DNA of 64,000 nucleotides from an uncultured virus (IMG/VR IMGVR_UViG_3300035191_000065). Its lineage: Duplodnaviria > Heunggongvirae > Uroviricota > Caudoviricetes. The stretch lies in IMG/VR virus record IMGVR_UViG_3300035191_000065. The stretch is one strand, 5' to 3'. Below are positions 44,000 through 59,803 of this stretch, piece after piece. The notes under the pieces were generated by a model that saw only the letters and a program-made list of their open reading frames with translations, had not been told where the DNA came from and did no database searches. The translations under genes were made by a program, and so were the position numbers. Within the stretch, counting starts at the first letter, position 1. Each line of letters starts with the position of its first letter.

Positions 44000-44063
44000 T
44001 GGGACCAGGCCGGGGAGTCGAACCCCGGTCACCGTCCTCCAGATGATCTGGAAAACCCTGGTC
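44000..44063 (-). ncRNA. tRNA-like element without D arm
   Basis: GACCAGG...CCGGGG-TTCGACT-CCCCGG-CCTGGTC-CCA. Confidence 0.65.
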
Positions 44064-45589: not shown

Positions 45590-45624
45590 TGGTGCCCTGA
45601 GATGCTTTTCACACATCGCAGGGC
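45590..45624 (-). other. tRNA minihelix mimic (12 bp, 7-nt loop, ACCA)
   Basis: GCCCTGCGATGT-GTGAAAA-GCATCTCAGGGC-ACCA, intergenic. Confidence 0.65.
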
Positions 45625-45633
45625 AGGATTTAT

Positions 45634-45879
45634 TCATTCGATGATGGGCTCGCTGACGACCTCGAAGCCGCCGACTTCGCGGCCCTCCCAGATGAACTTC
45701 TCGCCGCTGTCGTGGTAGCGCTGGAGAAGAGCGGTGTGAGAGCCGCTGGTGAGAAGCGCCAGCTCGTACTTGGTCGTCCATGCGGTGACGGCGAGAAAAA
45801 CGGTGTCGTGAGGCATCGGGATGCAGCCGATTTCGTCGCCAGATGTGTCCATCGCCAGGACGCAGTGTTTGAGTTTCAT
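45634..45879 (-). CDS. Hypothetical protein
   Basis: Start MKLKH with AAGGAGGA SD. Confidence 0.55.
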   Translation of the reverse strand: MKLKHCVLAMDTSGDEIGCIPMPHDTVFLAVTAWTTKYELALLTSGSHTALLQRYHDSGEKFIWEGREVGGFEVVSEPIIE

Positions 45880-45892
45880 GGCTCCCTCCTCC

Positions 45893-46480: not shown

Positions 46481-46953
46481 GGCGCCCTCAACTGCTTGAC
46501 GTGCTCAATGATGGTCGTTCGAGCGTGCTCGGCACCAAGCTCGTTCCAGAGCCATTCGAGCTGCTCGGAGAGGCCACCGTTGTTGACGTCGCTTCCCTCC
46601 TTGGAGGCGACGTCGTGAACAAGCTCGTCCATGTGCTCGACCAGCTCTTGCTCCACCTCGGAAGTTCCGCGCTTTGCACCGAGCATCTTCAGGATTTCTT
46701 CCTCAAGCTGTTCGCAAGCGTGCGCTGCTGACCAGACAGCATCGTTCGATAGTTCCGGGCCTTCGAGGTCGTACTGGTCTCCCTCGAAAACTGCCCAGTT
46801 CGCCTCGTCAGCAAGATGCAGAAACTCCACCGAGTCGTCGGCAAGCTCGCCGTTACCGTTCCTGACGGATTCGATGGCGTCCTGTGGATTTTCGGCCTCG
46901 ACCACGTAGTCGGCCAGGTGTGTCTCATGGACTCGTACAGTGAACTTGGGCAT
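46477..46953 (-). CDS. Hypothetical acidic protein
   Basis: AAAGGAG SD. Confidence 0.65.
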   Translation of the reverse strand: MPKFTVRVHETHLADYVVEAENPQDAIESVRNGNGELADDSVEFLHLADEANWAVFEGDQYDLEGPELSNDAVWSAAHACEQLEEEILKMLGAKRGTSEVEQELVEHMDELVHDVASKEGSDVNNGGLSEQLEWLWNELGAEHARTTIIEHVKQLRAP

Positions 46954-46965
46954 AGCTGCTCCTTT

Positions 46966-47166
46966 CTAGTCAGTGACGACTGCCTCGGCACCGCACTCGT
47001 TACAGGTCCAGGTGTTGTCGGGGTCGGGGCCGTGGACAACTTCGCCGACACCAGAGTCGGCAGATTCCACGTACTCGCCGTTCTCATCGACAACCCAGTC
47101 CTCGGTGACATGCGTCACGGTGATGAACCTTCTGTGGTTCGTGTCGTTCGGGCAACGCGCTTTCAT
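46966..47166 (-). CDS. Small zinc-ribbon protein
   Basis: CP...F...HV...W.VD..G...WTCxxCG; AAGGAGG SD. Confidence 0.65.
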   Translation of the reverse strand: MKARCPNDTNHRRFITVTHVTEDWVVDENGEYVESADSGVGEVVHGPDPDNTWTCNECGAEAVVTD

Positions 47167-47199
47167 GGTCCCTCCTTACTCGTCCTGGGGACGAAATTT

Positions 47200-47234
47200 T
47201 GGTCCCTGTCCTCGGGTATCAGCCGGGGACAGAG
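47200..47234 (-). other. tRNA minihelix mimic
   Basis: CTCTGTCCCCGG-CTGATAC-CCGAGGACAGGG-ACCA, intergenic. Confidence 0.6.
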
Positions 47235-47253
47235 ATGATGGTGGGATGACAGG

Positions 47254-48066
47254 TTACTCGTCTTCGGCTGGGAACCAACGCCAGATGGAGACGTAAGCTC
47301 CGTCGTTGCTCTCTGAGACCTGGGGTTCGTCGTCGATGTCCCAGTCGTTCTCATCCAGCTCGTGTCGGAAAAACTCTCGGGCTCGCTCTCGGTAAATGTC
47401 TTCGGACGAAGGCATCGTCTGTGGGAGAGGTCGAGGGGTTGGCTCACCCTGAAGGCGCTCGATGGGGATCAGGGTCTTCTTGCAGAGAATCCAGCCCTCT
47501 TCTTCGGCGTCGTCTTCTGCGCCCATTGTCTTCAGGCCCTCGCGGGCTTCTTCGGGCGTCTTGTAGATAAAATCGAAGGCGAACTCGTGCTTGTGAGGGT
47601 CAGACCATGGAACAAGGAGTCTTCGGGTTGTTTCTCCCTCAACCGTCGCCAGGATGCGCCAGGTGTACCAAGTCTCGGTGGGTGGCAAGGAGTGAGTCGG
47701 CACGGGTGTCGGTTCGTCCTCAATACCCTCGGCGACTTCATCGTTGAGGGCTGCAGTGCATCGTCGCTGCTGCAACTCGCTCAGGTGCTCCTCGATGGTG
47801 CTCTCGCTGGCGAGCCCGTAAAGCTCGGCGGCTGTCTTGCGCCAGAAGTGAAGCTCGTTGTGATCGGGAAGCTCGATCGTCTGGCGACCGCCGATTTCGA
47901 TCCATTCGTCCTCGCTGTCTGGCTCGTAAAGATCCTCGCCAATGATGGCGATGACCTCTTCCTCGGTCGGGCCGCGTTCAGGGTCTTTGCACTGATGAGC
48001 GAACACCGGCCAGGCGTCGGTCCCGTGCCGGTGCGAGTAGATGACGGTCCAGTAAAAAACAGTCAT
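47254..48066 (-). CDS. Hypothetical acidic protein (270 aa)
   Basis: AAAGGAG SD. Confidence 0.65.
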   Translation of the reverse strand: MTVFYWTVIYSHRHGTDAWPVFAHQCKDPERGPTEEEVIAIIGEDLYEPDSEDEWIEIGGRQTIELPDHNELHFWRKTAAELYGLASESTIEEHLSELQQRRCTAALNDEVAEGIEDEPTPVPTHSLPPTETWYTWRILATVEGETTRRLLVPWSDPHKHEFAFDFIYKTPEEAREGLKTMGAEDDAEEEGWILCKKTLIPIERLQGEPTPRPLPQTMPSSEDIYRERAREFFRHELDENDWDIDDEPQVSESNDGAYVSIWRWFPAEDE

Positions 48067-48098
48067 GGCTGCTCCTTTCCCCGTCCTTGGGACGGATT

Positions 48099-48392
48099 TT
48101 ATCCGATGCCACCGACAATCTTCAGCCCATGCTCCTCGCAGAACCGAAAAACCTCGAAGGCGTTTGTGAAAAAGGCGAAGTCTTCGTCGGGGCTTTCATT
48201 CTCTATGATCGCCTCGTAGACATCACCGTTAGGAAAGAGCCGGTCATTAACCGCAGACATGACCGAGCCACGAGAGTAGTGCTTCGTCCTTTTGCACTCC
48301 CGTCCGTACTCTTCCCAGATGCTCGGCTTGACGAGGTGATAGTAAAAGTCCTCGCCGCCACCGTCCGTCACGATTAAAAAACGTTCTTTCAT
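48099..48392 (-). CDS. Hypothetical protein
   Basis: GAGGT SD. Confidence 0.55.
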   Translation of the reverse strand: MKERFLIVTDGGGEDFYYHLVKPSIWEEYGRECKRTKHYSRGSVMSAVNDRLFPNGDVYEAIIENESPDEDFAFFTNAFEVFRFCEEHGLKIVGGIG

Positions 48393-48458
48393 TTCGTACC
48401 TCGGTCCTCGGCGTGCGCGGAAGCTGACCACGCCGAGGATGTATGTTCGTCTTGGGGA

Positions 48459-48797
48459 TTACGCGGCGAGTTTTGCGGCCCACTTTGCTGCGAGCTTGGC
48501 ACGCATGACCTCGATCGGCTCGATGAATTCGGGCCACACGACCGGGCCGTCGTGAAAGAGTGGTGTCTTGTGGTTGGTGCCCATCTTCCAGCCTCGTCGC
48601 CAGGATTCTTGGACGACGAGGTCGTGATAGGCAGCGAGCGCGGGTAGGAAGCCGCGCCAGCGGTTGACCTCGGGGTGATGTTGATAGCCCTTCTCGGGGT
48701 CGAGGATGATGTTGTTAATGGCGTGAATCTCGTTGTGAACGCCCGTGAGCCTCGGGCCGTCGAGGCAGAGCGGGGGGATTGGATACCAGACGCGCAA
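48459..48797 (-). CDS. Pyrimidine dimer DNA glycosylase / endonuclease V family protein
   Basis: MRVW..PP..LD..RL...H.E.H...GY.HHP...RW...L..YH..V.E..RRG. Confidence 0.7.
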   Translation of the reverse strand: MRVWYPIPPLCLDGPRLTGVHNEIHAINNIILDPEKGYQHHPEVNRWRGFLPALAAYHDLVVQESWRRGWKMGTNHKTPLFHDGPVVWPEFIEPIEVMRAKLAAKWAAKLAA

Positions 48798-48827
48798 TGT
48801 CAGCTCCTTTCTTCGTCCTGGGGATTT

Positions 48828-49142
48828 TTACTGAATAAACGCCTTTTCAGCGTCCTGGCCGAGAGCGGTAGCGGTCTCGCGGGGCAAATGGATGACGCGC
48901 CCGCTGCTAAGATCGGTCGCGGTGCCATCATAGCCCTTGGATCCGGGGGGGAAGCCCTGGTTCTCGATGTCGAATGAAGCGACAACGAAACGCCAGAGAG
49001 GAGATCGTCCGTAGGTGCCGGTGTAGCCCATCGCCTCTGGGTGGTCCTTAATGGGCAGCATTTCCCACTTGATTCTGCCTCGCTTAATAAATGCGAGGAA
49101 CTTGTCGTGGAGCTTGAGCATTTCAATCTCGGTCGGTGTCAT
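48828..49142 (-). CDS. Hypothetical protein
   Basis: SD present; operon packing. Confidence 0.55.
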   Translation of the reverse strand: MTPTEIEMLKLHDKFLAFIKRGRIKWEMLPIKDHPEAMGYTGTYGRSPLWRFVVASFDIENQGFPPGSKGYDGTATDLSSGRVIHLPRETATALGQDAEKAFIQ

Positions 49143-49314
49143 GGTCCTTTCCTTCCTCGTCCTGGGGACGGACGACCATAGTTTGCAACTGCTCTTTGAG
49201 GTTGCGCTCGAAGGTGGTCAGCTCCTCGTCGGGTGACTCGGCGTTCTCTTCCATCTCCTCCAGCGTGGCAAGCCAATGCTGGCCCCACTTGTTCCATCTG
49301 TCCTGTGTTGCCAT
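49123..49314 (-). CDS. Hypothetical protein
   Basis: AGGAGG SD; coupled to the upstream stop. Confidence 0.45.
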   Translation of the reverse strand: MATQDRWNKWGQHWLATLEEMEENAESPDEELTTFERNLKEQLQTMVVRPQDEEGKDHDTDRD

Positions 49315-50009
49315 CAGTCGTCCTCCTGATGCGCATCTGCCACGGCGCTGTCAGCGAGCTTCCCGGCCTCCTCGAATGCACGCTGAGTTTGGTCCTCTTT
49401 CCAGTCGAAGGGCTGCTCTCCGATGTCGATCGCGTAGTCGGAAAGCTCAGTCTCGGGGATTTCTTGAACATGGAAAGCGTAGGGAGCAGAATTCTCGTCG
49501 TAGGCGACGAGGCGCGCTTGCTCGGCGGACGGTGCGCGGACATAGACGTTGTCCCAGCTCCGATCGTCGTAGCAGAGAATGATCTCGTGATACTGGCATC
49601 GGGTGAGCCAGTGGGCGCACATGAACAGATCGAGTACCGTCAGTTCGTCGAACGACTCGGCGTCCACGATCTCGTGACCGAGTTTTAGCAGCTCATCGAA
49701 AACCTGATTCTCGGTTTTGTATTCGCAGTGGTCGGCGATGCCCCGGATCGCGTCGATGAGCTGGATGTCAGCCGAGTCAACGTAGCCAGCCAGTTCGATT
49801 AGCTTCTCTTTGACTCGCGGAAGAACTGGCGTGAACTCGATAACCGTTCCCTCGTGATAGCACTCGGAGCACTGGCACGATGAGTTATCGTTCCACTCGA
49901 CGTCGCCATAATCGTCAGTGCCGTCAGGGGCGACTTGGAATACGGATGTCGCTTCAATGCTGAACCAACCGCCGTCGTACCCGCACTTGGGGCACTTCAT
50001 ATCAGACAT
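49314..50009 (-). CDS. Hypothetical protein with N-terminal zinc ribbon
   Basis: Start MSDMKCPKCG with GAGGAGG SD. Confidence 0.65.
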   Translation of the reverse strand: MSDMKCPKCGYDGGWFSIEATSVFQVAPDGTDDYGDVEWNDNSSCQCSECYHEGTVIEFTPVLPRVKEKLIELAGYVDSADIQLIDAIRGIADHCEYKTENQVFDELLKLGHEIVDAESFDELTVLDLFMCAHWLTRCQYHEIILCYDDRSWDNVYVRAPSAEQARLVAYDENSAPYAFHVQEIPETELSDYAIDIGEQPFDWKEDQTQRAFEEAGKLADSAVADAHQEDD

Positions 50010-50118
50010 GGTATCCCTCCTCTCTGCGACGCGAAAGATTCTGCGACGCGATGGTCCCTCGCTGCGCGAAAGCTGACCAACGAGAGAAAACGTATTACTC
50101 AGTCCTGGGGATGAATTA

Positions 50119-50547
50119 TTACCGGGCGTAGATGACGAACCCGAGCCCCATGCTATCGGACTCGTAGTTTGCTGTCGTGTGAAACTCGCCGAGCCCATCG
50201 ACCATGACGGCGGGGCAGCACTTTCCGAACATGCCTCGACCGGAATAGTCCCAATTGATTTCGAGCCCCTGCTCCTCGGCGTCCCGAACGAACTGCTTTT
50301 GGTTGTCGCTCAGTTCGTAGTCGCAGTAGGCGCTCCAGTCCTCGTCTTCATCGTCTTCGCCGTCCTCGATGATGTCGCCCTCATGGTAGACGCCGACAAA
50401 CGAGACGTGCTCAACACCTTCGCGGTCCAGTCTTTCGAGCAGCTTCTCTTCTGCCTCCTCGGGCGTTGAGGCTTCGATGAACTTGGTGTTCCAGTGTCCG
50501 CCGGGCACTCCAAACCCAACATACATTTCATACTGTCGTTTCTTCAT
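50119..50547 (-). CDS. Hypothetical acidic protein
   Basis: GAGGAGG SD; YSGRGM.G..C...DSMGLG..IY motif recalled from phage early genes. Confidence 0.65.
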   Translation of the reverse strand: MKKRQYEMYVGFGVPGGHWNTKFIEASTPEEAEEKLLERLDREGVEHVSFVGVYHEGDIIEDGEDDEDEDWSAYCDYELSDNQKQFVRDAEEQGLEINWDYSGRGMFGKCCPAVMVDGLGEFHTTANYESDSMGLGFVIYAR

Positions 50548-50823
50548 GGTATCCCTCCTCTCTGCGTCCTGTAGACGCTAAAAACATGATTCTCGAAGCC
50601 GTACCTTACTCACCATCTACACCGGTTCGATGGCTTTCATCCACGCCTTCCCTTCTCGGTCGGCCTTTTCATGCCTTTCTCCCGTCTGTGACATGGGGGC
50701 GTTACCACCCTGGCCTTCATTCGTGATAACTCGGCATACCGACGCCTCCAGCGTCGAGAACCATGGTCCTCAAGCGGCGCGAAAGCTAACCGTCTTGAGG
50801 ATTTTTTGTTTGTCTATTGGTAG

Positions 50824-51297
50824 CTAGTTGATGCTGAAGTCGTGGCGAGGCTGAAGTCGAACGACAACAGCCTCGGGCTCTTGCCGCTCGCCAGCGATGG
50901 CGTCGAAAGCCGCGTGGGCTGCTCTCAGAGTGAGGTGGAAGTCTTCGAGAAGCTCAGCGATTGTGGCGACGAGCATCGCCATCTGTGCTTCCATGACGGG
51001 GATGAGCTTTCGAGCTTCTTCGGCCTGCGCGTGCCGCTCAGGTGTGATGATGACGATGTCGTCTGTGTCTGCGTCTTCAAGACGCTTTTCGTACTCGGCC
51101 TTCATGCGCTCAAGCTCGTTACCGTGCTTGGTGATCGCCTCGATTCCGCGCTCACAGACCGGGCAGTCGCACTCCCCGTGCATGTGCTTCCAGCGACCGA
51201 CGTCACGTAGGAGCGAGTTGATCGAGCAAGGGAGGCATGGGCACTGGTCCTCGTGCTCCATACGCTTGATTTCTTCTGCGACCAATGCTGCAAGCAT
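50824..51297 (-). CDS. Hypothetical Cys-containing protein
   Basis: Start MLAAL with AAAGGAG SD; two CxCxxC motifs. Confidence 0.6.
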   Translation of the reverse strand: MLAALVAEEIKRMEHEDQCPCLPCSINSLLRDVGRWKHMHGECDCPVCERGIEAITKHGNELERMKAEYEKRLEDADTDDIVIITPERHAQAEEARKLIPVMEAQMAMLVATIAELLEDFHLTLRAAHAAFDAIAGERQEPEAVVVRLQPRHDFSIN

Positions 51298-51409
51298 GGC
51301 TGCTCCTTTCTTCGTCCATTGTACAGGACGAACATAGTTGCTGACTTCTGACAAAAAAACTGGTCCCTGTTGCACGCGAAAGCTGCTGCAACAGAGAAGG
51401 TGTTAAAGG

Positions 51410-51664
51410 TTAATGGAGCCGCCGAGGGAATCCCGGCAGAGGGTCGGCCCGACCGATGGTTGCGGTCCAGCCGTCGTTGAAGTTGCGGCGCAGGTACTTG
51501 CACCATGCGGAAGCGGTGGTGTGATTCGAGCAGACCCGACGACCGCCGCGCCACTGAACGAACCAGCGACCCTTGTAGTAGTCCGGGTGATTGACGAAAG
51601 CTCCGATCGCTTCGCCGAACTGTGTCCATACAGAATCGGCTTCGACCGGCTCGGTTTGGGGCAT
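51410..51664 (-). CDS. Hypothetical protein
   Basis: Start MPQTE with AAAGGAG SD. Confidence 0.5.
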   Translation of the reverse strand: MPQTEPVEADSVWTQFGEAIGAFVNHPDYYKGRWFVQWRGGRRVCSNHTTASAWCKYLRRNFNDGWTATIGRADPLPGFPRRLH

Positions 51665-51693
51665 ATCATCTCCTTTCTTCGTCCTGGGGACGA

Positions 51694-52011
51694 TTATCTC
51701 CACTCTTCCAGCTCGTCCATGACGGCGAGGACGAGCCATTCCATGTGTTGGACGTTGTCGAGCATCTGCCCGTGCTCTGAGCAAACATCGAAAACGGTGG
51801 TGGTCCTGCGGCTGATATGGCTTTCGGCTCGCTCGCGAAGGCGCGAAACGTGCGCCATAAATTCCAGATGATACCAGCCGCCCTCTTCGTAGTAGTGCCA
51901 AGTGGAGCATTTGCAGGCGCCGTGGTATTCCTCGCCTTGACGGGGTTCGATGACCTGCTCACAGGTCGCGCATTCTTGCCTGCCCATGAGGTTTCGTTTT
52001 GCTTGTCTCAC
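51694..52011 (-). CDS. Hypothetical Cys-containing protein
   Basis: AGGAGG SD. Confidence 0.5.
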   Translation of the reverse strand: MRQAKRNLMGRQECATCEQVIEPRQGEEYHGACKCSTWHYYEEGGWYHLEFMAHVSRLRERAESHISRRTTTVFDVCSEHGQMLDNVQHMEWLVLAVMDELEEWR

Positions 52012-52020
52012 TTGAGCCTC

Positions 52021-52398
52021 CTATGCGCAGTGAACGCAGGTCCCGTGTTCGTCCTGGGTCTGGATGATGAGCTGGCCAGGCTTGGGCAGGGTGGGCTCGC
52101 GCCACGGCTTGAACTCGCCGCGAATCGTCTTGAGGATGTATTCGAGTGCTTTGGCGCGGCTGCACCAACTAAACGTGATGCTCTCGCACTGAAGCATGCT
52201 CGGCTCGTGAACGACAGCGTACTCCTGGGCTCCGTCCGGGCTCGTCGAGTCATTGAGGAAGAGATAATCCCCAAGACGAAACCCATTACAGCCGCACCAC
52301 GTCATCTCGGTGAGCTTGCGAGCGAGTTGCTTGGCGCCAGCCTCCAGAGAGACGGACTTGATGTCCGTCACGACTCGTCGTCTTCTTGGAAAAAGCAT
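52021..52398 (-). CDS. Hypothetical protein
   Basis: W..C.GF....LFLNDSTS.DGAQEYAV..ESITFSW conserved-looking motif; GAGGAGG SD. Confidence 0.6.
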   Translation of the reverse strand: MLFPRRRRVVTDIKSVSLEAGAKQLARKLTEMTWCGCNGFRLGDYLFLNDSTSPDGAQEYAVVHEPSMLQCESITFSWCSRAKALEYILKTIRGEFKPWREPTLPKPGQLIIQTQDEHGTCVHCA

Positions 52399-52475
52399 TT
52401 TATCCCTCCTCGCGTCCTGGGGACGCCGCTGGTCCCTCGCTGCCAGCTCCAAGGCCAGCGGCGAGAGAAAGTCAC

Positions 52476-52889
52476 TCACTCCTCGAACTCGAATGAATCA
52501 CCTGGAGTACCGCAGCACGGACACCGAGCGGGCTGTGCGCGATCGCGAAACTCGCACGATGGGCATTCGTAGTAGGGAGGAGAGTCGGGTTGTTCCGAGG
52601 GCGGTGGGATGGAGAAGTGGTTAATGAGAACGTCGAGGAACTGTGCCAGTGTGAACGCTGCGTGATCCTCGACGTCGTAGTCTGAGTATGATTCGTTGAT
52701 GATGAGAAGCCAGTCATCAAACCGCCGTGTTGGCACACCGTCCAGGGATTCGAGTCTGATCAGAGCGTCCTGAAGACACATGTCGGCCTGATCGCAAGTC
52801 GTGATGATGTCGGCAACTGGAGTCGCTCCGACATCATGCACGCACTCCTTCGCCTCTTTGATGTCGTCGATTAGTCCTTTGATAGTCAT
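52476..52889 (-). CDS. Hypothetical protein with C-terminal rubredoxin-like zinc ribbon
   Basis: YECPSC...P.RCPCCG. Confidence 0.6.
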   Translation of the reverse strand: MTIKGLIDDIKEAKECVHDVGATPVADIITTCDQADMCLQDALIRLESLDGVPTRRFDDWLLIINESYSDYDVEDHAAFTLAQFLDVLINHFSIPPPSEQPDSPPYYECPSCEFRDRAQPARCPCCGTPGDSFEFEE

Positions 52890-53131
52890 GACGTCTCCTC
52901 GATGAGCCGCTCAGTCTCGACATAATCGAGGTAGAGGTTGTGGTCGTGGAAGCGCTGGTCAGCGGCGTACTCGTTGGCGCAGTGCTCCGAGCAGAATGCC
53001 GAGTCCTGGGGATACACAGGCTCGCCATCCTCGTCAGCGTTGGGCTTTCCGCATACTGGGCACTCCTCGGGAATGTCGTATCCGCCTTGTGCTGCCAGGC
53101 AGTCGTGGCAGCCTCCGCACATACATCTCAT
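52886..53131 (-). CDS. Small Cys-rich protein
   Basis: CPVCGK...FCS..C; GAGGAGG SD. Confidence 0.55.
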   Translation of the reverse strand: MRCMCGGCHDCLAAQGGYDIPEECPVCGKPNADEDGEPVYPQDSAFCSEHCANEYAADQRFHDHNLYLDYVETERLIEETS

Positions 53132-53258
53132 GGTGTCCCTCCTCTCTGCGTCCTGGGGACGCATGTTGTTTAGTGGTCCCCGCCAGGGCTTCTCACACCC
53201 TGCCGGGAATGGTTTGGAATGTCGCCGGAACAGATTGGAATATTCGTCCTGGGGATGG

Positions 53259-53624
53259 TCAGTCTGCGTCCATCTCTTCGAGTAGCTCGCCGCTCTCGTC
53301 GCGCACGCTGATGATCTGGGCGCGCATCGAGTCGAGCGTTTCGAGCATGTCGTCGAGCCCCTCGGTGCGAATGGCGTGGGCCTCCAAGGCGAGGTTGAGC
53401 TTGCGCTCCTTCTCGCCGACGAGGTCGATCAGCTCGCCGATAAAAGTGTTCAGTGACTCGATGTTCTTGCAAAGAACAGGGATGTCCTCTTCGGTGCACT
53501 CCTCGGGCTTGGGGAGCGGCGCAGCCTTCATTAAGCTCCCACGTCGTCCAGCGAGGGCGAGTTGGAGCATTCCCTCGTAGGTGGCGGCGATGGGCTTGCC
53601 CTGTGCTTCGGTTTGCTCAGACAT
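53259..53624 (-). CDS. Hypothetical coiled-coil protein
   Basis: AGGAGG SD. Confidence 0.6.
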   Translation of the reverse strand: MSEQTEAQGKPIAATYEGMLQLALAGRRGSLMKAAPLPKPEECTEEDIPVLCKNIESLNTFIGELIDLVGEKERKLNLALEAHAIRTEGLDDMLETLDSMRAQIISVRDESGELLEEMDAD

Positions 53625-53734
53625 GTTGTCCCTCCTGTTTTACGTCCATCCTGGGGACGCTCTGTTGGTTCCCGTCGGGACTTTCACACCCCGACGGGAA
53701 AGTTTTGGAACGGCACTGGAACGAACTGGAATAC

Positions 53735-54418
53735 TCAGTGAGTCGTCGTGTCTGCTTCGGCCTCGCCCTCGGCCTCTGCCGCCTTCTTCTCGTTCATCAT
53801 CTCGACGTAGCGCTCCAGCGTTAGTAGGACCCGCTCGATCTCGTCGGGGTCCATGCTGATCGAACGGGTACGCATACCGGGGAATCCAGTCGAGCGGCGA
53901 GCCTTGATGCCGAGCTTCTCGAAGCGGGCGAGCTGCTTGTCGATGCGACGAGCGATCGCCAGATCCTCGGCTTCAGCCTCAGCCTTCTCGCGGGCCTTTT
54001 TCTCCTCCTCCAGATGGATTTCGAGGAGCGGCACGCGGTCCTCGTCGATGTGAGCCTGGGCTCCGGGTCCGCCAAGCTCGTAAACGTCTTCGGGGATGTC
54101 GCAGAGGCACGCCGAATCGGCTGAGTTGTTGTCGTGGTTGTTGACGGCGACACAGTAGTCGTTGCGGTAGTGGTGCGTAGTGGCGATTCTGATGTCGTGC
54201 TTGGCGAGCCAGCGGGCAGCCCGCTTTTGCTTCTTGCCGAACACATCGCGCTTCTGCTGTCGCCAGGGCTTGACGAGCTTGATCGTCGTCCCTTTGGCGA
54301 GGATGACAGCCCCCTCGTTCTCTTCCTTGTTCCAGTAGCGGCAAGCTAATGCCTTTTCAAATGGCACCAAATAACCTGCTAGCCGCTCGCGGCACTTCGG
54401 GCACTTTACCTCGATCAT
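53735..54418 (-). CDS. Hypothetical protein
   Basis: Start MIEVKCPKC with GAGGAGG SD. Confidence 0.65.
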   Translation of the reverse strand: MIEVKCPKCRERLAGYLVPFEKALACRYWNKEENEGAVILAKGTTIKLVKPWRQQKRDVFGKKQKRAARWLAKHDIRIATTHHYRNDYCVAVNNHDNNSADSACLCDIPEDVYELGGPGAQAHIDEDRVPLLEIHLEEEKKAREKAEAEAEDLAIARRIDKQLARFEKLGIKARRSTGFPGMRTRSISMDPDEIERVLLTLERYVEMMNEKKAAEAEGEAEADTTTH

Positions 54419-54537
54419 GTTGTCCCTCCTCTCTCGCTGCTCAGTGACTCGATTGGACCCCCCAACCGTGAGGGAGGGACGGTCCCAAGCCGAGGAGCCC
54501 AATCGGGCCACCGAGAAACGAAATGGTTAGTGAATCG

Positions 54538-54632
54538 CAAAAAAAGGCTAGTGAGGCGCAGACCGCGCCTCGAAATGCTCAGTGAAGCGGCAAAAAAAGC
54601 GCGGGCCGGTCGAGCCAGCCTCGCGCTTTTTG
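54538..54632 (-). terminator. Two tandem intrinsic terminators inside the early block
   Basis: Minus strand: GCGCGAGGC...GCCCGCGC+T7, then GAGGCGC/GCGCCTC...T7. Confidence 0.6.
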
Positions 54633-54662
54633 CGTCCCGTTCGCTTCGTCCTGGGGATGATT

Positions 54663-54730
54663 TGGGGCACGGCGCGGGAGTCGAACCCGCTCGACCGTCC
54701 TGGGGACGTTCGATCCTTGCTTTGCCGTGC
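54663..54730 (-). ncRNA. tRNA-like element (7-bp acceptor, T arm, D-replacement loop, CCCA end)
   Basis: GCACGGC-AAAGCAAGGA-[TCGAACGTCCCCAGGACGGTCGA]-GCGGG TTCGACT CCCGC-GCCGTGC-CCCA. Confidence 0.7.
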
Positions 54731-54795
54731 GCGGCTCGACCGTCCTGGGGACGATTGAGCCGGTTTCGGGTTGGTAACGATGTTTCGGAACCGAG

Positions 54796-55809
54796 CTAGA
54801 TCGCGCCGACCATGTCGTCGCCGTCGCCCGCGATCTCCTCCTCCACCTCGCCGTCGCCGAAGAGGTCGCCCTGGTCGGCGATCGCTTCGGTTTCGGCTTC
54901 GGCGGACTGGTCCGCGAGTGCCGCCGCCTGGACGAGCGCGGCCTGCATATCGCTGATCATGTCGGAGTCCACGGTGTTGAGCGCGGCCTCATACTCTTCG
55001 TCGGATTCCTTGCTCGCCTTGACCCAAGCCGTCGCCGACTTGCGGATCGAAGCGACCATGTCGGTCACGGCGAGCCCGGCCTCTTCGGGGAGCAGAGTGG
55101 AGAATGACTTGGCTTCGGCGATCGCCTTGCGGGCGAGGTCCGCCCGAATCTTGGCGATGATGGCGATCCGCTGCTCGCGGGGGGCCTTCATGACCTCTTT
55201 CGCGGTCTTGAAGTCGCCGAGCTGGTTGGCGCGGGCGTTCTCCAAGATCGCTTGCTCGTCGGCCTGGACTGCGCCATTGACGCGCTCCAAGATGTCGCCG
55301 AGCTGCTCGGTGACAGCCGCGATAGTGCCGCTGTTGTTGCCCTCGACACTGTACAGACCATAGCGAAAGACGAGGTCCATGGTTTGAGCGGTCTTGTTGA
55401 ACGCCTTGACCCGGTTGTGGCAAGCGGAGAGGGTCTGCGCAAGCTCTTGCTTGCGGTGTGCCGCGACGATCAGCCCCACGGCGGTTTCGCAGCCGAGCTT
55501 TTTGACGTCACGATGCACCTTGGCCCGCTCTTTGTCTGCCCGCTTTAGCTCGTCCTCGTCGTAAATGACGCGGACTGCTTTCCAGGTCTCGGTTTTCTTA
55601 CCACCCTTGCCCTTGCGGACCTTGATGTCCTCCCGTTTCGTCTCGCGCCCACCCCGCATATGACAGGTCAGGTTGACGAGAATGCCGGGGAGAATCGACT
55701 TGATGACGAGAGACTCGGGATCGATCACATGAACGATCTCGGGGGTGCTCTCGGTGGTCTCCTCGGTGGTCTCCTCGGTGGTCTCGGTTCCGTTTGTCTC
55801 GTTAGCCAT
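54796..55809 (-). CDS. Hypothetical helical protein (337 aa) following the AAA module
   Basis: Start MANET with AGGAGG SD. Confidence 0.7.
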   Translation of the reverse strand: MANETNGTETTEETTEETTESTPEIVHVIDPESLVIKSILPGILVNLTCHMRGGRETKREDIKVRKGKGGKKTETWKAVRVIYDEDELKRADKERAKVHRDVKKLGCETAVGLIVAAHRKQELAQTLSACHNRVKAFNKTAQTMDLVFRYGLYSVEGNNSGTIAAVTEQLGDILERVNGAVQADEQAILENARANQLGDFKTAKEVMKAPREQRIAIIAKIRADLARKAIAEAKSFSTLLPEEAGLAVTDMVASIRKSATAWVKASKESDEEYEAALNTVDSDMISDMQAALVQAAALADQSAEAETEAIADQGDLFGDGEVEEEIAGDGDDMVGAI

Positions 55810-55853
55810 GTTGTCCCTCCTGCCGGCTTGATACATTGCCGGCTGTTGTTTCC

Positions 55854-55920
55854 CGGTCTCCGACGCGGGGGTCGAACCCGCTCAATCATCCTGGGGACGA
55901 TTGAACCACATTTGCCGGAG
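55854..55920 (-). ncRNA. tRNA-like element, sibling of 54663-54730
   Basis: CTCCGGC-AAATGTGGT-[TCAATCGTCCCCAGGATGATTGA]-GCGGG TTCGACC CCCGC-GTCGGAG-ACCG. Confidence 0.7.
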
Positions 55921-55978
55921 AGGATCGACCGTCCTGGGGACGATCGATGCGTTGTAGAATGAAGACGCTTGCGCGGTC

Positions 55979-57685
55979 TCACCAGGGGTCGGTCAGGGCT
56001 TCACGATTGAAAATCGGTGTACCGGGCGCGGGGGCTTCGCCTTCGTCCTGGGGACGAACAGGCGTGCTCTCGACCTGATCGGGGTCCGGGTCGCTGGCGC
56101 GGCGTGCGCGCCCCTTGGCCCAGTCCCGAAGAGCGGCGAGCTTGGCCTCATAGGTGACGCTCATGGGAACGATGTCTTTCGCCGCCTCGACGACGTCGTC
56201 GGTTGTGACAGTGTCGTCTTTCGACTCGCCCTCACAGTATCGAGCCCACGCAGTCAAGATTGCCTCTTTGACCGACTCCTCGATTTCACTGCCCGTGAAA
56301 CCGGCGAGCTTGCCAGCGATCGACTTGACCGACTTCGCGGGGAGCTTGCGCTCACTCCGCTTGTTGAGGTGAATGTTGAGGATGGTTTCGCGGTCGGCCT
56401 GGTTGGGCAGATCGACAAACCAGATTTCGTCCACGCGCCCCTTGCGAGTCAGCTCGGGCGGGAGCCCGCTGATATCGTTCGAGGTGATGCAGGTGAACAC
56501 CTGAGATTGACGCTCCTGGAGCCATATCAAGAGCAAGCGGACCAGCGTTCGCTTGCTCCCGCCGTCATTCTCGCCGCCACTGCCAAGCGCTTTCTCGATT
56601 TCATCGATCAGCACGGTGCAGGGGGCGAGTGCATCGACCGTCCGCAAGGCTTCGGCCATTCTGGTCGCAGTCTCGCCAACGATTCCGCCCTCACACTCGC
56701 TGAGGTTGAGAACGATCAAGGGCTGTTTGAGCGTTGCCGCCGTGGCGCGTGCCGTGAGGGTCTTTCCACCCCCTGGCACACCGACGAAAACGCAACCCTT
56801 GGGCTCATCGATACCGCGCTCCCTCGCCGCTTGAGTGAAGGCGTGGGTTCGCTTGTTGAGCCATCGCTTGTAGTGGTCGAGCCCGCCGACCTGGCCCATT
56901 TGATGGGCCTCACCCTCGAAGCTCACACCGTGGACCGATGCAAGCTCTTCGGCCTTCAGTCGACTAAGACGCTCTGGATCGACGTCGCCATGCTCGACAA
57001 AGTCGAGCTTGATCAAGTCGGTCGCTTGACCCACGCCTAACCCTCGTAAAGCGAGAGCACAGTCGCGGGGGTGAACGCCTTTTGCACCGAGCTTTGCAAG
57101 AGCGTTTTTGGCGTTTGAAGTCAACACCTCGACACTCGGCAATCCCGGCTTGACCAGCGCAATGTGTCGCCGCAAGTCATCCTTGATCTGGTCGGAGACC
57201 GAGACCAGGACAACCGTGGTGAGCGTGTTGCGCAACTCACGGGCGCAGTCCTTCAACGCTCGCCGCCACGGGTCGGAACCCATGAACATGTGAGCGTCCC
57301 TGACCACGAGGATCATGGGTTGCGTTTTGTTCTCCAGGGCAAATTTCTTAGCCTGGAGAATCGCCCCGTGAGGGCTCGAAGCCATTTGAGCGTTTGGAGC
57401 GAAATTGTCGGGGATCGGCGTGTTGACTGCCTTGCCGTTGATTCGCTCTTCGAGCCAACCATCAGCGTGCGTCCAACCAGGCTTGCCGTCCAGGCCACTG
57501 GTCAGAGACCAGATAGCGCAGATTCCCTTGTGCCCCTTGAAGTCCATGTTTTTCGCGAGATTTGCCAGTCCACTTTCGGCTCGTTGCTCCTCACCGGTGA
57601 GAAACCAGATCACGGGAACCCGCGCCGAGATGATGGTCTGCACACGCGCAAGCATGTTCTTACCATTCTTTTTGTTAGCTGCCAT
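55979..57685 (-). CDS. AAA+ ATPase, Ycf46/SpoVK-like
   Basis: VGGL..K.WL, PKG...GVPGGGKT, LIDEIEK, TSNDIS.LPPEL.RKGR.DEIWFVDLP, LRDWA..RAR.AS. Confidence 0.88.
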   Translation of the reverse strand: MAANKKNGKNMLARVQTIISARVPVIWFLTGEEQRAESGLANLAKNMDFKGHKGICAIWSLTSGLDGKPGWTHADGWLEERINGKAVNTPIPDNFAPNAQMASSPHGAILQAKKFALENKTQPMILVVRDAHMFMGSDPWRRALKDCARELRNTLTTVVLVSVSDQIKDDLRRHIALVKPGLPSVEVLTSNAKNALAKLGAKGVHPRDCALALRGLGVGQATDLIKLDFVEHGDVDPERLSRLKAEELASVHGVSFEGEAHQMGQVGGLDHYKRWLNKRTHAFTQAARERGIDEPKGCVFVGVPGGGKTLTARATAATLKQPLIVLNLSECEGGIVGETATRMAEALRTVDALAPCTVLIDEIEKALGSGGENDGGSKRTLVRLLLIWLQERQSQVFTCITSNDISGLPPELTRKGRVDEIWFVDLPNQADRETILNIHLNKRSERKLPAKSVKSIAGKLAGFTGSEIEESVKEAILTAWARYCEGESKDDTVTTDDVVEAAKDIVPMSVTYEAKLAALRDWAKGRARRASDPDPDQVESTPVRPQDEGEAPAPGTPIFNREALTDPW

Positions 57686-57801: not shown

Positions 57802-58314
57802 CTAGTCTTGAACGGTGCAGAGAATCTCAATAAAGCCCGTCTCTTCATTCTCTACGCGCTCGACGCCGATCACGTTGGGTTGGAGCCATGCGAGATCTTC
57901 GGCCTCTTTCGCAGCGGCGACCTGCCAGAAACGACCCTCTTGGTTGTTCCACCACTTGCCCTTGTCGTAATCGCTGATGATCGCCTCGAAACCGTCGGCA
58001 CTCTTGCGAAAACCGGCGTCATTCGACAGCCCCCCGCCGAGATGTTTGTTGACCACGTCTGCGGGGATGCGAACGTGAGCAACCTCGTCGCGACGGTCGC
58101 CCTGGTATCCGTAGAGGTTGACCGGCTCATCGAGGCAGACCTGGACCTTTTCGGCAACGAGCTTGGTTGCCTTTTCGGTCCACTTGGCGATCTCCTCTTC
58201 GAGCTTGTCAGCGGGGACGTGGCGACAGTTGAATTGAACAATGCGGTCAATCAACGCCTCGATGATAGCGTCGGTTGACTGCACGACAGACTTGTGAACG
58301 CGAAACTTGCTCAT
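57802..58314 (-). CDS. DUF1257 (Ycf35-like) protein
   Basis: MS.F.........I.AL; LYGYQGD.R; NDAGF; IISDYD. Confidence 0.7.
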   Translation of the reverse strand: MSKFRVHKSVVQSTDAIIEALIDRIVQFNCRHVPADKLEEEIAKWTEKATKLVAEKVQVCLDEPVNLYGYQGDRRDEVAHVRIPADVVNKHLGGGLSNDAGFRKSADGFEAIISDYDKGKWWNNQEGRFWQVAAAKEAEDLAWLQPNVIGVERVENEETGFIEILCTVQD

Positions 58315-58732: not shown

Positions 58733-59275
58733 GCTTTGTCCCTCCTGTCCTGCACTGAGCGGTGTGCTCAGGTTTGCAACCTCGAAACGCTGTTTCGCTT
58801 CGAGGCTCCAAACCTGAGCACGCCCTTTCGAGCGTGCCCAGGGGGAAGGGGACAATGCTAACGTTGTTCTGTCAGGGACTAAGCCAGATCGCGCAACGGT
58901 GCACCCTAATCCAGAGTACACGACGCAACGCGCAAGCTACGCCGACCATACGGACCAGCGCTTTCAATCATCCTGGGGATGACTGAGGGAGCGCTAGCGC
59001 CACTGTGACAGACTGCGCGCTAGTTGGGATGGTTGAGGTAGTGTGCAACGTCGCGCCCGCGAGGGGGACGTCTCCGCGCCCCTCTGGTGGCGGAACCACC
59101 AGGCCACGACGGGAGCCGTGGGAAACCCCCGCGCAGACGGGGGCTAGCACCTCTCGGTGCCAGGGGCGAGGGACGGGCGAGGGGAGCCCTAGCTTGCTCC
59201 GCCGTGGCCCGCTTGGTTGTCAATGACCCTGGGGGCGTGGCCCCCGCCCCCCCGCATACGAGAGGGGGTATGATG

Positions 59276-59303: not shown

Positions 59304-59629
59304 CCCCTTTTTTTGATATTTTTTTTCGCCAATGATTACGGGCACCTACGGGGCATATCACACCCGGCCACGGGGAGTGTACCACGATCGCCGGGAATCG
59401 CCCACCGATGCCCGCGCCCAATGCAAGCCCCGTGCCATCCTATCCCGGTCAGCTCCCAGGGCGCAGACGCCTAAGTGCTCGAAATCACGCGGGTTGGCCC
59501 ACGGCACACCAGGGCTCCCCGTAGGGGAGCCCTGGGGGAACCCTGGGGAAGCCGGGGGAGAACGCACGGTCAGCGCACGGGAGCCCACGGCGCCCGTCCC
59601 CAGGACCGGGCTCGAACCTGGCGAAGCGG

Positions 59630-59803
59630 TCACTGACCCTCACTGACCTTTGCTCAGTCGCGGTTCAGTAACCAATTTGCTCAGTGATCACTGACCAAAA
59701 TCACTGACCAACGCGCAGTGAACGGGTCTCGAAACGGCTCATGGGGGGCTCGGCGCGGCCCGAGCGGGCACTTTCACTGGCCGTTTCGGTCGTCTCACTG
59801 GCC
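59630..59803. repeat. Cluster of TCACTGRCC repeats
   Basis: TCACTGACC at 59630, 59640, 59688, 59701; TCACTGGCC at 59774, 59795; inverted CAGTGA at 59682 and 59716. Confidence 0.7.

Follow-up and report, generated by a model that had tools for sequence, protein, structure and literature searches.

A conserved family of D-arm-less tRNA-like RNAs in the operons of a lineage of large, tRNA-rich, uncultured phages

The window analyzed here is a stretch of 64,000 nucleotides belonging to a 182,770-bp virus record, which elsewhere carries 31 tRNAs and a tmRNA (genome position 168127 to 168490 by ARAGORN; none in the window). The locus of interest (genome position 68137 to 69394) contains, on the minus strand, a conserved gene for a 337-aa protein (54796..55809), flanked by two short tRNA-like elements that we term TLS2 (5′ of the gene; 55854..55920) and TLS1 (3′ of it; 54663..54730). 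Directly 5′ of TLS2 lies an AAA ATPase gene (55979..57685, minus strand), a position conserved in relatives; its product is 64% and 55% identical to the products of upstream ORFs in the related contigs L002 and L004, and a tblastn search of 50,697 phage records recovered 121 records, all of them distant (<60% identity; best, 33%). The 337-aa protein, whose termini are both acidic and of low complexity, has 32 homologs (41 to 96% identity) and a single weak PHROG match, to a family of unknown function. It recovered no match in Pfam or among PDB sequences, and its AlphaFold2 model (mean pLDDT, 70.9) gave no PDB match at E ≤ 0.001 with Foldseek and no usable lead in the ESM Atlas. Parts of the stretch are present in 24 sequencing runs, mostly wetland metagenomes. 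The four runs that we compared have identical sequence at low depth, except that a contig of run X5 has a 3-bp insertion, and no recombinant junctions were seen in them at TLS1 or TLS2. The contigs of one low-depth RNA run cover only 53691 to 53945 and 57873 to 58214, outside the two elements.

The sequence-only reading had described two sibling elements of a single architecture at this locus, and our analysis bears this out. Both lie on the minus (gene-sense) strand. TLS1 (54730..54663) reads GCACGGC / AAAGCAAGGA / TCGAACGTCC-CCA-GGACGGTCGA / GCGGG-TTCGACT-CCCGC / GCCGTGC / CCCA, with a 7-bp acceptor, a 10-nt linker, a 10-bp arm formed by the palindrome with its CCA triloop, a discriminator C, and an encoded CCA. 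TLS2 (55920..55854) reads CTCCGGC / AAATGTGGT / TCAATCGTCC-CCA-GGATGATTGA / GCGGG-TTCGACC-CCCGC / GTCGGAG / ACCG, with one G-U pair in the acceptor, a 9-nt linker, the GGATG variant of the palindrome arm, and the tail ACCG. In both, the D arm is replaced by an A-rich linker of 9 to 10 nt, the 10-bp arm is capped by the repeated palindrome of the phage, CGTCC-CCA-GGAYG, and the T arm is canonical. The minimum-free-energy folds of TLS1 and TLS2 are exactly this three-way junction (−33.1 and −31.5 kcal/mol; z = −3.6 and −3.9), and none of 200 shuffled sequences did as well. The co-variation of the acceptor between the copies was likewise recovered: 3 of its 7 pairs are changed on both sides (G-C/C-G, C-G/U-A, and A-U/C-G) and 1 on one side. 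A strict scan of the whole genome for a 5-bp T stem, a TTCRANN loop, and an acceptor paired at 7 of 7 positions returned 35 matches, namely, TLS1, TLS2, and 33 within the tRNA array (32 of the latter on the plus strand and 1 on the opposite strand). As the earlier reading had anticipated, ARAGORN in standard mode called no genes in the window; nor did Rfam return a match there at its gathering scores.

The palindrome that caps these arms is itself abundant. With at most one mismatch, CGTCCCCAGGACG occurs 26 times in the window, compared with 0.14 expected copies, a count reached by none of 100 shuffles, and 8 of the 26 copies stand immediately before a Shine-Dalgarno sequence with a start codon and an ORF of 50 codons or more. 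One such hairpin stands just upstream of each element, as had been noted from the sequence: GGCTCAATCGTCC-CCA-GGACGGTCGAGCC (54733..54761, minus strand; −20.9 kcal/mol; z = −4.6) ends 2 nt 5′ of TLS1, and ATCGATCGTCC-CCA-GGACGGTCGAT (55924..55948, minus strand; −16.3 kcal/mol; z = −4.2) ends 3 nt 5′ of TLS2. The outer stem of the former, GGCTC/GAGCC, recurs 5′ of the elements in contigs L004, L006, and L001. By direct reading of the sequence, the interval from TLS2 to the start codon (ATG) of the 337-aa gene holds a hairpin, GCCGGC-N10-GCCGGC, and after it the Shine-Dalgarno sequence AGGAGGG (55815..55843, minus strand). On the other side of this gene, a weaker palindrome copy, TCATCC-CCA-GGACGA (54646..54660, minus strand), lies 2 nt past the CCA of TLS1, and an intrinsic-terminator-like hairpin with a T run (54590..54625, minus strand) ends the transcription unit about 40 nt past TLS1.

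A covariance model built from TLS1 and TLS2 alone (R1; 95 bits for TLS1) recovered 8 further elements in 7 related metagenome contigs (E = 6 × 10−10 to 1 × 10−6), all on the gene-sense strand. Model R2, run with filters off on both strands of 90,396 bases, retrieved exactly the 10 elements at 56 to 83 bits (82.9 for TLS1 and 72.2 for TLS2), with the next best match at 20.6 bits, and it splits the family cleanly from real tRNAs, the best other matches scoring ≤27 bits. In the relatives, whose neighboring proteins are 46 to 64% identical, elements again occur between the AAA ATPase gene and the homolog of the 337-aa gene and again after the latter; their position is sense-strand, intercistronic, and conserved together with the flanking genes. 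In the 10-sequence alignment, which was fitted to the structure of the model and whose covariation counts are to be read accordingly, 94.3% of the cells pair, compared with 74.0% in shuffles (reached by 0 of 500), and pairing drops to 34 to 48% when partners are slid by 1 to 3 columns. Compensatory changes on both sides are seen in 16 of the 22 pairs, and the helix of the arm has been preserved through double changes at all 10 of its pairs. An independent alignment of 12 sequences (MAFFT and RNAalifold) recovered the acceptor stem and the T arm, with 83 of 84 acceptor cells paired and double changes in 5 of the 7 acceptor pairs. The proposal that these are sibling tRNA mimics is thereby strengthened by syntenic homologs with strong covariation. 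Pairwise identity among the elements is mostly 40 to 70%; a signal of concerted evolution, in which a phage's own copies would be closer to each other than to their orthologs, is not clear (TLS1 and TLS2 are 69% identical, and TLS1 and the L007 element are 70% identical).

Several features recur across the family. The linker AAA is retained in 9 of the 10 elements, position −1 is a pyrimidine in 9, and the 3′ tail encodes N-CCA in 6 and N-CC in 8. A stable hairpin ends 1 to 3 nt 5′ of 9 elements in computed folds (up to 5 nt by hand reading). The arm loops are 3, 3, 5, 3, 4, 5, 6, 3, 5, and 5 nt long, on stems of 7 to 11 bp; a 7-nt anticodon loop on a 5-bp stem occurs in none of the 10, and there is no conserved U33. 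Since the arm loop is 3 to 6 nt and never 7, the elements are not decoding tRNAs, in agreement with the initial suspicion. The downstream element of L007 has the same layout as TLS1, with a terminator-like hairpin and T run after it. At the downstream position, L001 and L003 instead have a 15-bp hairpin followed by CCA in place of an element, which resembles the minimal model substrate of RNase P.

The physical link between the palindrome and the tRNA mimics, also proposed at the outset, holds for part of the family. Six of the 10 elements (TLS1, TLS2, L003, both L004 copies, and L006) have the local repeated hairpin as their arm, and that of L007 is one mismatch away from it, but the remaining three arms (L002 twice and L001) bear no relation to the hairpins of their own locus; hence, the link is frequent rather than obligatory. 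The motif itself varies by phage, being CGTCC-CCA-GGACG here and TC-GTGAG-GA in L004 and L006; the 6.3-kb contig L004 has 5 copies of the latter on the sense strand and none on the other.

Taken together, their structure, conservation, covariation, synteny, and strand and the absence of an anticodon loop place the elements in one conserved and so far unannotated family of D-arm-less tRNA-like RNAs, carried by a lineage of large, tRNA-rich, uncultured phages that is seen in wetland metagenome runs.

Two further candidates lie in the window. One, TLS3 (44003..44063, minus strand; fold z = −2.8), is a possible distant third member. Its acceptor is GACCAGG/CCTGGTC, directly adjoined by a 10-bp arm that ends in a UCA triloop; the linker measures 5 nt, and the T stem has 6 bp and the loop TTCGACT. 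Immediately after TLS3 comes CC-AAGGAGG-N5-ATG of the next gene. Its model scores are weak (E = 0.037 and 0.059), and its Rfam matches are below threshold (tRNA-Sec, 22.7 bits; mascRNA-menRNA, 18.7 bits, with a gathering score of 42.5). The other (58951..58997, minus strand; E = 0.055) lacks a T arm and comprises an 8-bp acceptor-like stem, CTAGCGCT/AGCGCTGG, with the tail TCCG, enclosing a palindrome hairpin of the compensated variant CATCC-CCA-GGATG. A weak model match at genome position 173856 to 173931 was dropped because it is inside a coding ORF, as was a fourth GGTTCGANNCC match (59608 to 59618), which lacks acceptor and T-stem pairing.

In wider searches, single-protein queries with the 337-aa protein and the helicase recovered no relative in viral contigs, and neither did the A2 profile search; in metagenome contigs, the single-protein search likewise recovered none, and the relatives there came only from the profile search. 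Exact patterns of a palindrome plus a T arm and of a palindrome pair matched no stretch in the viral contigs. The pattern CAAA-N20-45-T arm matched 21 viral loci. Of these, L029 (41.9 bits) resembles a D-armless element, as perhaps does L040 (32.5 bits), which may lie within an ORF; all the others are real tRNAs or weak matches. A stricter pattern applied to genome contigs matched 16 loci, 14 of which are elements of about 85 nt that match R2; these, mostly from Lentisphaeria and Victivallales MAGs, were rejected as family members. ARAGORN called tRNA-Leu for each of the three on which it was run. The other two were not convincing, and this pattern search of genome contigs found no bacterial copy of the family.

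We compared the elements with the known classes of tRNAs and tRNA-like RNAs. With canonical tRNAs, they share the 7-bp acceptor on a 5-bp T stem, the TTCRANN loop, the discriminator, and, in part, the CCA; however, neither RF00005 nor standard ARAGORN detects a cloverleaf with a D arm at threshold, and the highest-scoring hits to the tRNA clan, both to tRNA-Sec, stay below threshold (19.4 and 16.4 bits; gathering score, 47). D-armless mitochondrial tRNAs are known in nematodes, mites, and mammals (tRNA-Ser AGY) and similarly have a short loop in place of the D arm with a normal acceptor stem and T arm, but their anticodon stem still has 5 bp and a loop of 7 nt, and they decode, whereas the phage elements have a 3- to 6-nt loop on 7 to 11 bp. 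The plant-virus 3′ tRNA-like structures have a pseudoknotted acceptor and lie at the 3′ end of an RNA genome, unlike TLS1 and TLS2, which have a plain 7-bp acceptor helix and are internal to a DNA phage operon; RF00233 (Tymo_tRNA-like) gives only 14.8 and 14.5 bits (gathering score, 40). The initial reading had also invoked tmRNA and bacterial Y RNA. The likeness goes no further than analogy, since neither family's defining features were found when they were looked for. A tmRNA combines its tRNA-like domain with a tag frame and pseudoknots, and elements of 67 to 68 nt have no room for a tag frame. The Y RNA YrlA is described as having a D-arm mimic, a Ro60-binding module, and adjacency to Ro60 (PMC4201824); it resembles the elements in its T arm and acceptor-like stem, but its RNA ends are placed outside that stem, whereas TLS1 and TLS2 lack a D arm, end in the acceptor stem, and lie about 105 kb from the Ro60-like gene.

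The closest functional parallels are RNAs cut out of longer transcripts. MALAT1/mascRNA and the plant mitochondrial t-elements are described as tRNA-like elements excised by RNase P and RNase Z, with the cut of the RF01684 type leaving a protective end on the upstream RNA and releasing a small CCA-type tRNA-like RNA (PMC4919922). The phage layout is analogous, a stable hairpin being followed 1 to 5 nt on by the element; but MALAT1 and MEN-beta, which carry the RF01684 elements at their 3′ ends, are eukaryotic nuclear lncRNAs protected by a triple helix rather than a hairpin, the phage elements have an arm helix of 7 to 11 bp often bearing a phage-specific repeat, and RF01684 (mascRNA-menRNA) does not match TLS1 or TLS2 at E values up to 10. 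In mitochondrial tRNA punctuation, and with t-elements, intercistronic tRNA or tRNA-like signals for RNase P and RNase Z are stated to mature the adjacent mRNAs (PMC4919922); that system is organellar, whereas here processing is only predicted, in a double-stranded DNA phage with 31 normal tRNAs. Bacterial precedents are also on record: in Mycobacterium smegmatis YrlA, whose module has a 7-bp acceptor, RNase P RNA is reported to cut in vitro and CCA to be added in vivo (PMC4201824), and RNase P is reported to cut some polycistronic mRNAs and the C4 RNA precursor of phages P1 and P7 (PMC4919922). As presented in that source, C4, operon mRNAs, and hairpin-CCA substrates are cut at tRNA-like or minihelix-CCA structures, but they are single cases outside any conserved D-armless three-way-junction family, and none is described there as flanking one gene twice or as having a phage hairpin for an arm (PMC4919922). 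Rfam 15 has no family matching the elements.

These observations lead us to favor, with a probability of roughly 0.55, the explanation that host RNase P and 3′-end enzymes excise the elements as pre-tRNA mimics, punctuating the mRNA and releasing a CCA-ended small RNA. The elements would be transcribed within a sense-strand polycistronic mRNA, where they flank the 337-aa gene after the AAA ATPase gene. Each would present an acceptor/T-arm coaxial stack, usually with an encoded N-CCA, which the tRNA-maturation enzymes of the host may treat as a pre-tRNA: the 5′ end would be made by an RNase P cut at +1 and the 3′ end by trimming or CCA repair. The upstream mRNA would be left with a conserved, stable hairpin at its 3′ end as protection, the downstream cistron, or its hairpin and Shine-Dalgarno sequence, would be set free, and a CCA-ended, tRNA-shaped RNA of about 62 to 73 nt, whose long arm often shows the repeated hairpin of the phage, would be released. 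We infer the transcription, the cleavage by RNase P and 3′-end enzymes, and the benefit to mRNA stability; the fold, homologs, synteny, covariation, pre-tRNA-like ends, upstream hairpin, and hairpin-CCA at the downstream position in L001 and L003 argue for them, as do the YrlA and RNase P precedents. Because no PolyA_pol (CCA-adding), PIN_5 (protein-only RNase P), or Lactamase_B_2 (RNase Z) domain was found among the proteins of the phage, processing would depend wholly on the host. A hairpin this close (1 to 5 nt) to the presumed cleavage site could make it harder for bacterial RNase P to bind the 5′ leader. Moreover, the arm helix and the linker AAA are conserved beyond what RNase P needs, which counts against this explanation.

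The same conservation of the arm helix and A-rich linker fits a second, tentative possibility, that function resides in the excised small RNA itself, which would act in trans as a tRNA-shaped, CCA-ended scaffold that shows the repeated hairpin, with mRNA punctuation as a side effect. It could be a decoy or titrator for a binder of the hairpins adjacent to Shine-Dalgarno sequences or a decoy for host enzymes or defense nucleases at acceptor ends. This is compatible with excision as pre-tRNA mimics, since both need processing by tRNA enzymes. TLS1 and the L007 element, at the end of their operons, precede an intrinsic terminator and not a cistron, so that cutting is unneeded there for gene separation, which favors the small RNA as the product. 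The identity or near-identity of seven arms with the local hairpin, even though the motif differs between phages, and the eight palindromes directly before translation starts point the same way. Against it, three arms are unlike the local hairpin, the binder is only putative, and gene conversion among repeats could produce the likeness of arm and hairpin without any function. In a more specific and rather doubtful form of this proposal, the excised, CCA-capped, nuclease-resistant body would be a carrier that displays the regulatory hairpin of the phage and acts in trans as a decoy. As such, it could titrate the putative binder of hairpins 0 to 10 nt before the ribosome-binding sites of at least 8 neighboring genes, thereby timing their translation, or it could lure away toxins or nucleases of the host that target the acceptor ends of tRNAs. 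Such a carrier predicts that arm and free-hairpin motifs co-vary between related phages, as is observed.

It is very unlikely that the elements are Y-RNA-like partners of a Ro60-like protein of this phage. The genome does encode such a protein within the tRNA array (528 aa; genome position 174717 to 176303), with a Ro60 vWA domain (53.7 bits; cutoff, 27.7) and a weak TROVE match (17.8 bits; cutoff, 23), and bacterial and phage Y RNAs are stated to contain tRNA-like domains (PMC4201824). However, Y RNAs are reported in the same source to be encoded near Ro60, not at the distance seen here; the RNA would end in the acceptor stem rather than a Ro60-binding stem; and, by sequence reading, the motif GNCGAAN0-1G, like the D arm, is absent from TLS1 and TLS2.

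We give equally little credence to the idea that the elements act as DNA, for instance as tRNA-gene-derived sites of recombination or attachment or as direct repeats bounding a gene cassette. Two copies in direct orientation do surround one gene, and tRNA gene fragments are stated to arise commonly at the integration sites of mobile elements (PMC9897764). Yet the elements retain both strands of the acceptor, whose pairing is maintained by co-variation across relatives with neighboring proteins of 46 to 64% identity, which is a signature of RNA structure and not of a DNA site; every copy is on the sense strand; and the ORFs scanned in the window between 39.9 and 64 kb include no integrase match, the sole integration-class match being to a TnpB-like transposase family (39911 to 41674). 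Least probable of all are decaying tRNA pseudogenes, which the large tRNA array could seed, chance look-alikes, or true decoding D-armless tRNAs, as ARAGORN in mitochondrial mode might suggest by reading TLS2 as mtRNA-Trp (cca): elements conserved in synteny through compensatory change can be neither decay products nor chance, the short loops on long stems exclude decoding, and the 91 calls in that mode across the genome are mostly spurious.

Cutting signals of tRNA-like form in messenger RNAs are textbook knowledge for mitochondria and are known from a few nuclear lncRNAs; a full-text literature search turned up no account in which phage operons carry such signals as a conserved family. The elements most likely mark sites in the long messenger RNA of the phage that are to be cut by the tRNA-trimming enzymes of the host. 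If they are processed in this way, these phages would borrow the tRNA-maturation machinery of their hosts to shape their own mRNAs, and a compact, D-armless three-way-junction mimic of tRNA would be added to the bacterial world, where all known tRNAs are stated to be cloverleaves (PMC11551756). The frequent use of the repeated hairpin as the arm of the mimic ties two repeat systems of the phage together and offers a concrete handle for finding the putative factor that reads the hairpin, and model R2 can be used to annotate the family in metagenomes.

The two D-armless tRNA-like elements, TLS1 (54730..54663) and TLS2 (55920..55854), lie on the minus strand and flank a 337-aa ORF (54796-55809, minus), with TLS2 upstream, next to an AAA ATPase gene (55979-57685, minus), and TLS1 downstream. 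Read on that strand, both match exactly the architecture that the sequence-only reading had proposed: TLS1 runs GCACGGC, AAAGCAAGGA, TCGAACGTCC-CCA-GGACGGTCGA, GCGGG-TTCGACT-CCCGC, GCCGTGC, C-CCA, and TLS2 runs CTCCGGC, AAATGTGGT, TCAATCGTCC-CCA-GGATGATTGA, GCGGG-TTCGACC-CCCGC, GTCGGAG, A-CCG. At minimum energy, each is predicted to fold into this three-way junction (TLS1, -33.1 kcal/mol, z = -3.6; TLS2, -31.5 kcal/mol, z = -3.9), and none of 200 shuffles folded as well as either. An intrinsic-terminator-like hairpin with a T run follows TLS1 by ~40 nt. The genomic setting is a large, very poorly annotated phage: the window is the minus strand of 60057-124056 in a virus record that consists of one contig (182,770 bp; estimated completeness, 95%), in which ARAGORN places 31 tRNA genes together with a tmRNA in an array (166-183 kb) whose strand corresponds to the window's minus strand. 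The genes surrounding the two elements are also on the minus strand, with many small ORFs further down beyond the 337-aa ORF; elsewhere, the window encodes a helicase, an exonuclease, a primase-like protein, a ParB-methyltransferase fusion, and a peptidase, as well as a TnpB-type gene (587-aa ORF, 39911-41674, minus) with a Cas12f1-like TNB domain and transposase PHROG matches. Three DNA sequencing runs returned sequence identical to the window, save for one 3-bp insertion in one contig, and one metatranscriptome run returned three small contigs, placed away from the TLS elements. The insertion (GTC at 55768, run X5) is inside the 337-aa gene, in a tandem GGTGGTCTCCTC repeat encoding an N-terminal TEETTEE stretch, and indicates length variation of a low-complexity acidic tail.

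A strict scan of the whole genome, which demanded a T stem of 5 bp, a TTCRANN loop, and an acceptor with all 7 bp paired, gave 35 matches, namely, TLS1, TLS2, and 33 within the tRNA array (32 on the plus strand and one opposite). A looser scan added TLS3 (44063..44003, minus), a possible distant third member; its count of 3 versus 1.05 expected from 20 shuffles is a small excess. Standard ARAGORN made no call in the window, as had been expected, and Rfam at gathering thresholds gave no matches there. Permissive Rfam searches reached only 19.4 and 16.4 bits for tRNA-Sec (cut-off, 47) and 14.8 and 14.5 bits for the tymovirus TLS model (cut-off, 40), with TLS3 scoring 18.7 bits against the mascRNA-menRNA model (cut-off, 42.5). 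By membership tests, TLS1 and TLS2 are neither tRNA nor tmRNA, Y RNA, or plant-virus TLS. Outside the window, standard ARAGORN misses three tRNA-like genes in the array (G000:C1:178061-178137, 167810-167895, and 167900-167989, plus), which its mitochondrial mode reads as Gly-tcc, Ser-gga, and Ser-cga; the first was also recovered by the strict scan, and the phage tRNA complement may exceed 31.

Single-protein and exact-pattern searches for relatives gave no matches. The 337-aa protein has 32 homologues (41-96% identity) in a large protein collection, and a search of metagenome contigs with profile A2 (the query and 30 of the homologues, 31 sequences in all) led to seven loci. R1, a covariance model built from TLS1 and TLS2 only, found eight more elements in those seven loci (E values from 6e-10 to 1e-6), each in gene-sense orientation and at a syntenic place. 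An element separates the AAA ATPase and 337-aa homologues in L001, L002, and L004 (the upstream ATPase homologues of the latter two being 64% and 55% identical, respectively); one follows the 337-aa homologue in L002, L004, L006, and L007; and that of L003 lies one gene further on, behind a sigma-factor-like gene. After the 337-aa gene of L001 and L003, the element is replaced by the local hairpin and, three nucleotides later, a 15-bp hairpin followed by CCA (a minihelix-CCA), which a T-arm-less structure at 58997..58951 of the window resembles. R2, a model from all ten family sequences, applied without filters to both strands of 90,396 bases, returned exactly those ten at 56-83 bits; the next-best matches, both weak, were TLS3 (20.6 bits) and a T-arm-less structure in L003 (17.2 bits), and real tRNAs of the whole genome scored at most 27 bits.

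The ten elements share a 7-bp acceptor stem, a 9-12-nt linker in place of the D arm (beginning with AAA in 9/10), an arm of 7-11 bp whose loop has 3-6 nt and never 7, 0-3 nt between the arm and T stem, and a near-invariant T arm, G(C/T)GGG-TTCRANT-CCC(G/A)(C/T). The GG reported in the linker is present in five members and absent from the rest. The tail is N-CCA in six and N-CC in eight, and position -1 is a pyrimidine in nine. In computed folds, a stable hairpin ends 1-3 nt ahead of 9/10 elements (up to 5 nt by hand reading), with an outer stem, GGCTC/GAGCC, that recurs in five. Downstream, one finds a Shine-Dalgarno sequence 1-2 nt after CCA (the L002 downstream element and TLS3), a hairpin and then a Shine-Dalgarno sequence (TLS2, L002 upstream, and L004), or a terminator (TLS1 and L007).

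The arm of TLS1 and TLS2 is capped by the phage's own repeated hairpin, the CGTCC-CCA-GGAYG palindrome. Allowing at most one mismatch, CGTCCCCAGGACG has 26 copies in the window versus 0.14 expected, 21 of them on the minus strand. Five fall in the two TLS modules: the two arms, the two upstream hairpins, which, as claimed, directly precede the elements (ending 2 and 3 nt before them), and a weaker copy just past TLS1. Eight minus-strand copies within 43.6-53.7 kb (43644, 47181, 48082, 49158, 51680, 52413, 53149, and 53647; range, 43644-53659) stand 0-10 nt ahead of a Shine-Dalgarno sequence, a start codon, and a small sense-strand ORF of at least 50 codons. These look like a phage-wide 5'-UTR hairpin signal that might be, for example, a site for a translational operator, an RNA-processing enzyme, or an RNA stabiliser, and relatives carry their own version at the same position before genes (L004 4365 and 5890, L002 6703, and L007 2537). 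Each relative has its own hairpin family, TC-GTGAG-GA in L004 and L006 (five sense-strand copies and none opposite in the 6.3-kb L004) and (R)TCC-NNN-GGA(Y) in L002, L007, L001, and L003, placed, as in the window, before Shine-Dalgarno sites, before the TLS, and often within it as the arm. Arm and local hairpin coincide in TLS1, TLS2, L003, both L004 copies, and L006, differ by one mismatch in L007, and are unrelated in L001 and both L002 copies; the physical link drawn between the palindrome and tRNA-mimic systems is therefore real and recurrent across the lineage yet not obligatory. Clusters of a repeated GGTCAGTGA / TCAGTGA motif occupy two noncoding stretches of the window, 59620-59740 (minus) and 54420-54600, one of them just past the terminator following TLS1; they may be promoter arrays, operator arrays, or iterons. 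A comparable run of GAGACAC/GGGACA motifs follows the L003 element (L003 1840-1900).

The structure, conservation, strand, and position of the elements are established here; how they would work in RNA processing we infer from what is known of the enzymes that process tRNAs. RNase P of bacteria requires little beyond the acceptor/T-arm stack, helped by a 3' RCCA. One precedent is a mycobacterial Y RNA: its tRNA-like module, whose acceptor has 7 bp, is a substrate for RNase P RNA in vitro and acquires CCA in vivo (PMC4201824). Others are MALAT1/mascRNA and plant mitochondrial t-elements, where tRNA-like elements are cut from longer transcripts, along with RNase P targets in some Escherichia coli polycistronic mRNAs and in the C4 RNA precursor of the P1 and P7 phages (PMC4919922). 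On these grounds, we interpret the unit of hairpin and TLS as a processing module, and we give excision by tRNA enzymes, with punctuation of the transcript, a probability of roughly 0.55. After an RNase P cut at +1, the upstream mRNA would end in a 3' hairpin; the other end of the element would be set by 3' trimming or CCA repair, the 337-aa gene would be left on a separate mRNA, and the product set free would be a small RNA ending in CCA. In the phage genome, no gene for a CCA-adding enzyme, a protein-only RNase P, or an RNase Z was found, and host enzymes would therefore do the processing. The proposed working is like that of mascRNA, t-elements, and mitochondrial punctuation, but the TLS elements are not members of these families. 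Three features speak against pure punctuation: TLS1 and the element in L007 precede a terminator, with no cistron needing separation, the arm helix and A-rich linker are conserved past what RNase P needs, and the arm is often the phage's own hairpin. The same features favor a role in trans for the released RNA, a tentative proposal that is compatible with processing by tRNA enzymes.

A Y RNA role is suggested by a phage Ro60-like protein (528 aa, G000:C1:174717-176303, plus, outside the window; locus L058 1418-3004) with a Ro60 vWA domain at 53.7 bits (cut-off, 27.7) and a weak TROVE match. We consider this role very unlikely, since the gene is 105 kb off, within the tRNA array, and the features that define Y RNAs are missing from the elements. 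The noncoding stretch past that gene (L058 ~3005-3500), where Rfam gave no match, may itself hold a Y RNA, given a strong hairpin and a GCCGAATG motif fitting GNCGAAN0-1G.

Covariation bears on the remaining explanations. In the model-fitted alignment of the ten sequences, 94.3% of 212 cells are standard pairs versus 74.0% in shuffles, none of 500 of which reached the observed value; both sides change at 16/22 pairs, and pairing falls to 34-48% when the 3' partners are shifted by 1-3 columns. As this alignment leans towards the model structure, we repeated the analysis with MAFFT and RNAalifold on 12 sequences, of which two come from other viral contigs. Both the acceptor stem and the T arm emerged independently, with 83/84 acceptor cells paired and double changes at 5/7 acceptor pairs; sequence alone did not suffice to align the variable arm. 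Thus, the covariation whose absence would have counted against the elements is present, and with pairwise identity mostly at 40-70%, the compensatory changes are informative. They make a purely DNA-level role very unlikely, and likewise tRNA pseudogene decay or chance, which, together with decoding tRNAs, we hold to be the least probable of all.

Full-text literature searches turned up no account of D-armless tRNA-like RNAs forming a conserved family in phage operons. A viral contig, L028, has at ~1490-1575 (minus) a tRNA-like gene unrelated to this family, with a normal D arm, an apparent 13-bp acceptor helix (GGTCTCCGACCGG...GCCGGTGGAGACC), and no ARAGORN call. Another viral contig (L029, 75.8 kb) carries at 1495-1567 (plus), between two small ORFs, a D-armless element of the same build, GCCCGGC-AAATTCGGAA-arm-GCGGGTTCGAATCCCGC-GCCGGGT, without an encoded CCA (R2, 41.9 bits). 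Since no homologue of the 337-aa gene was detected in that phage, the family of D-armless tRNA-like elements may extend beyond the lineage studied here.
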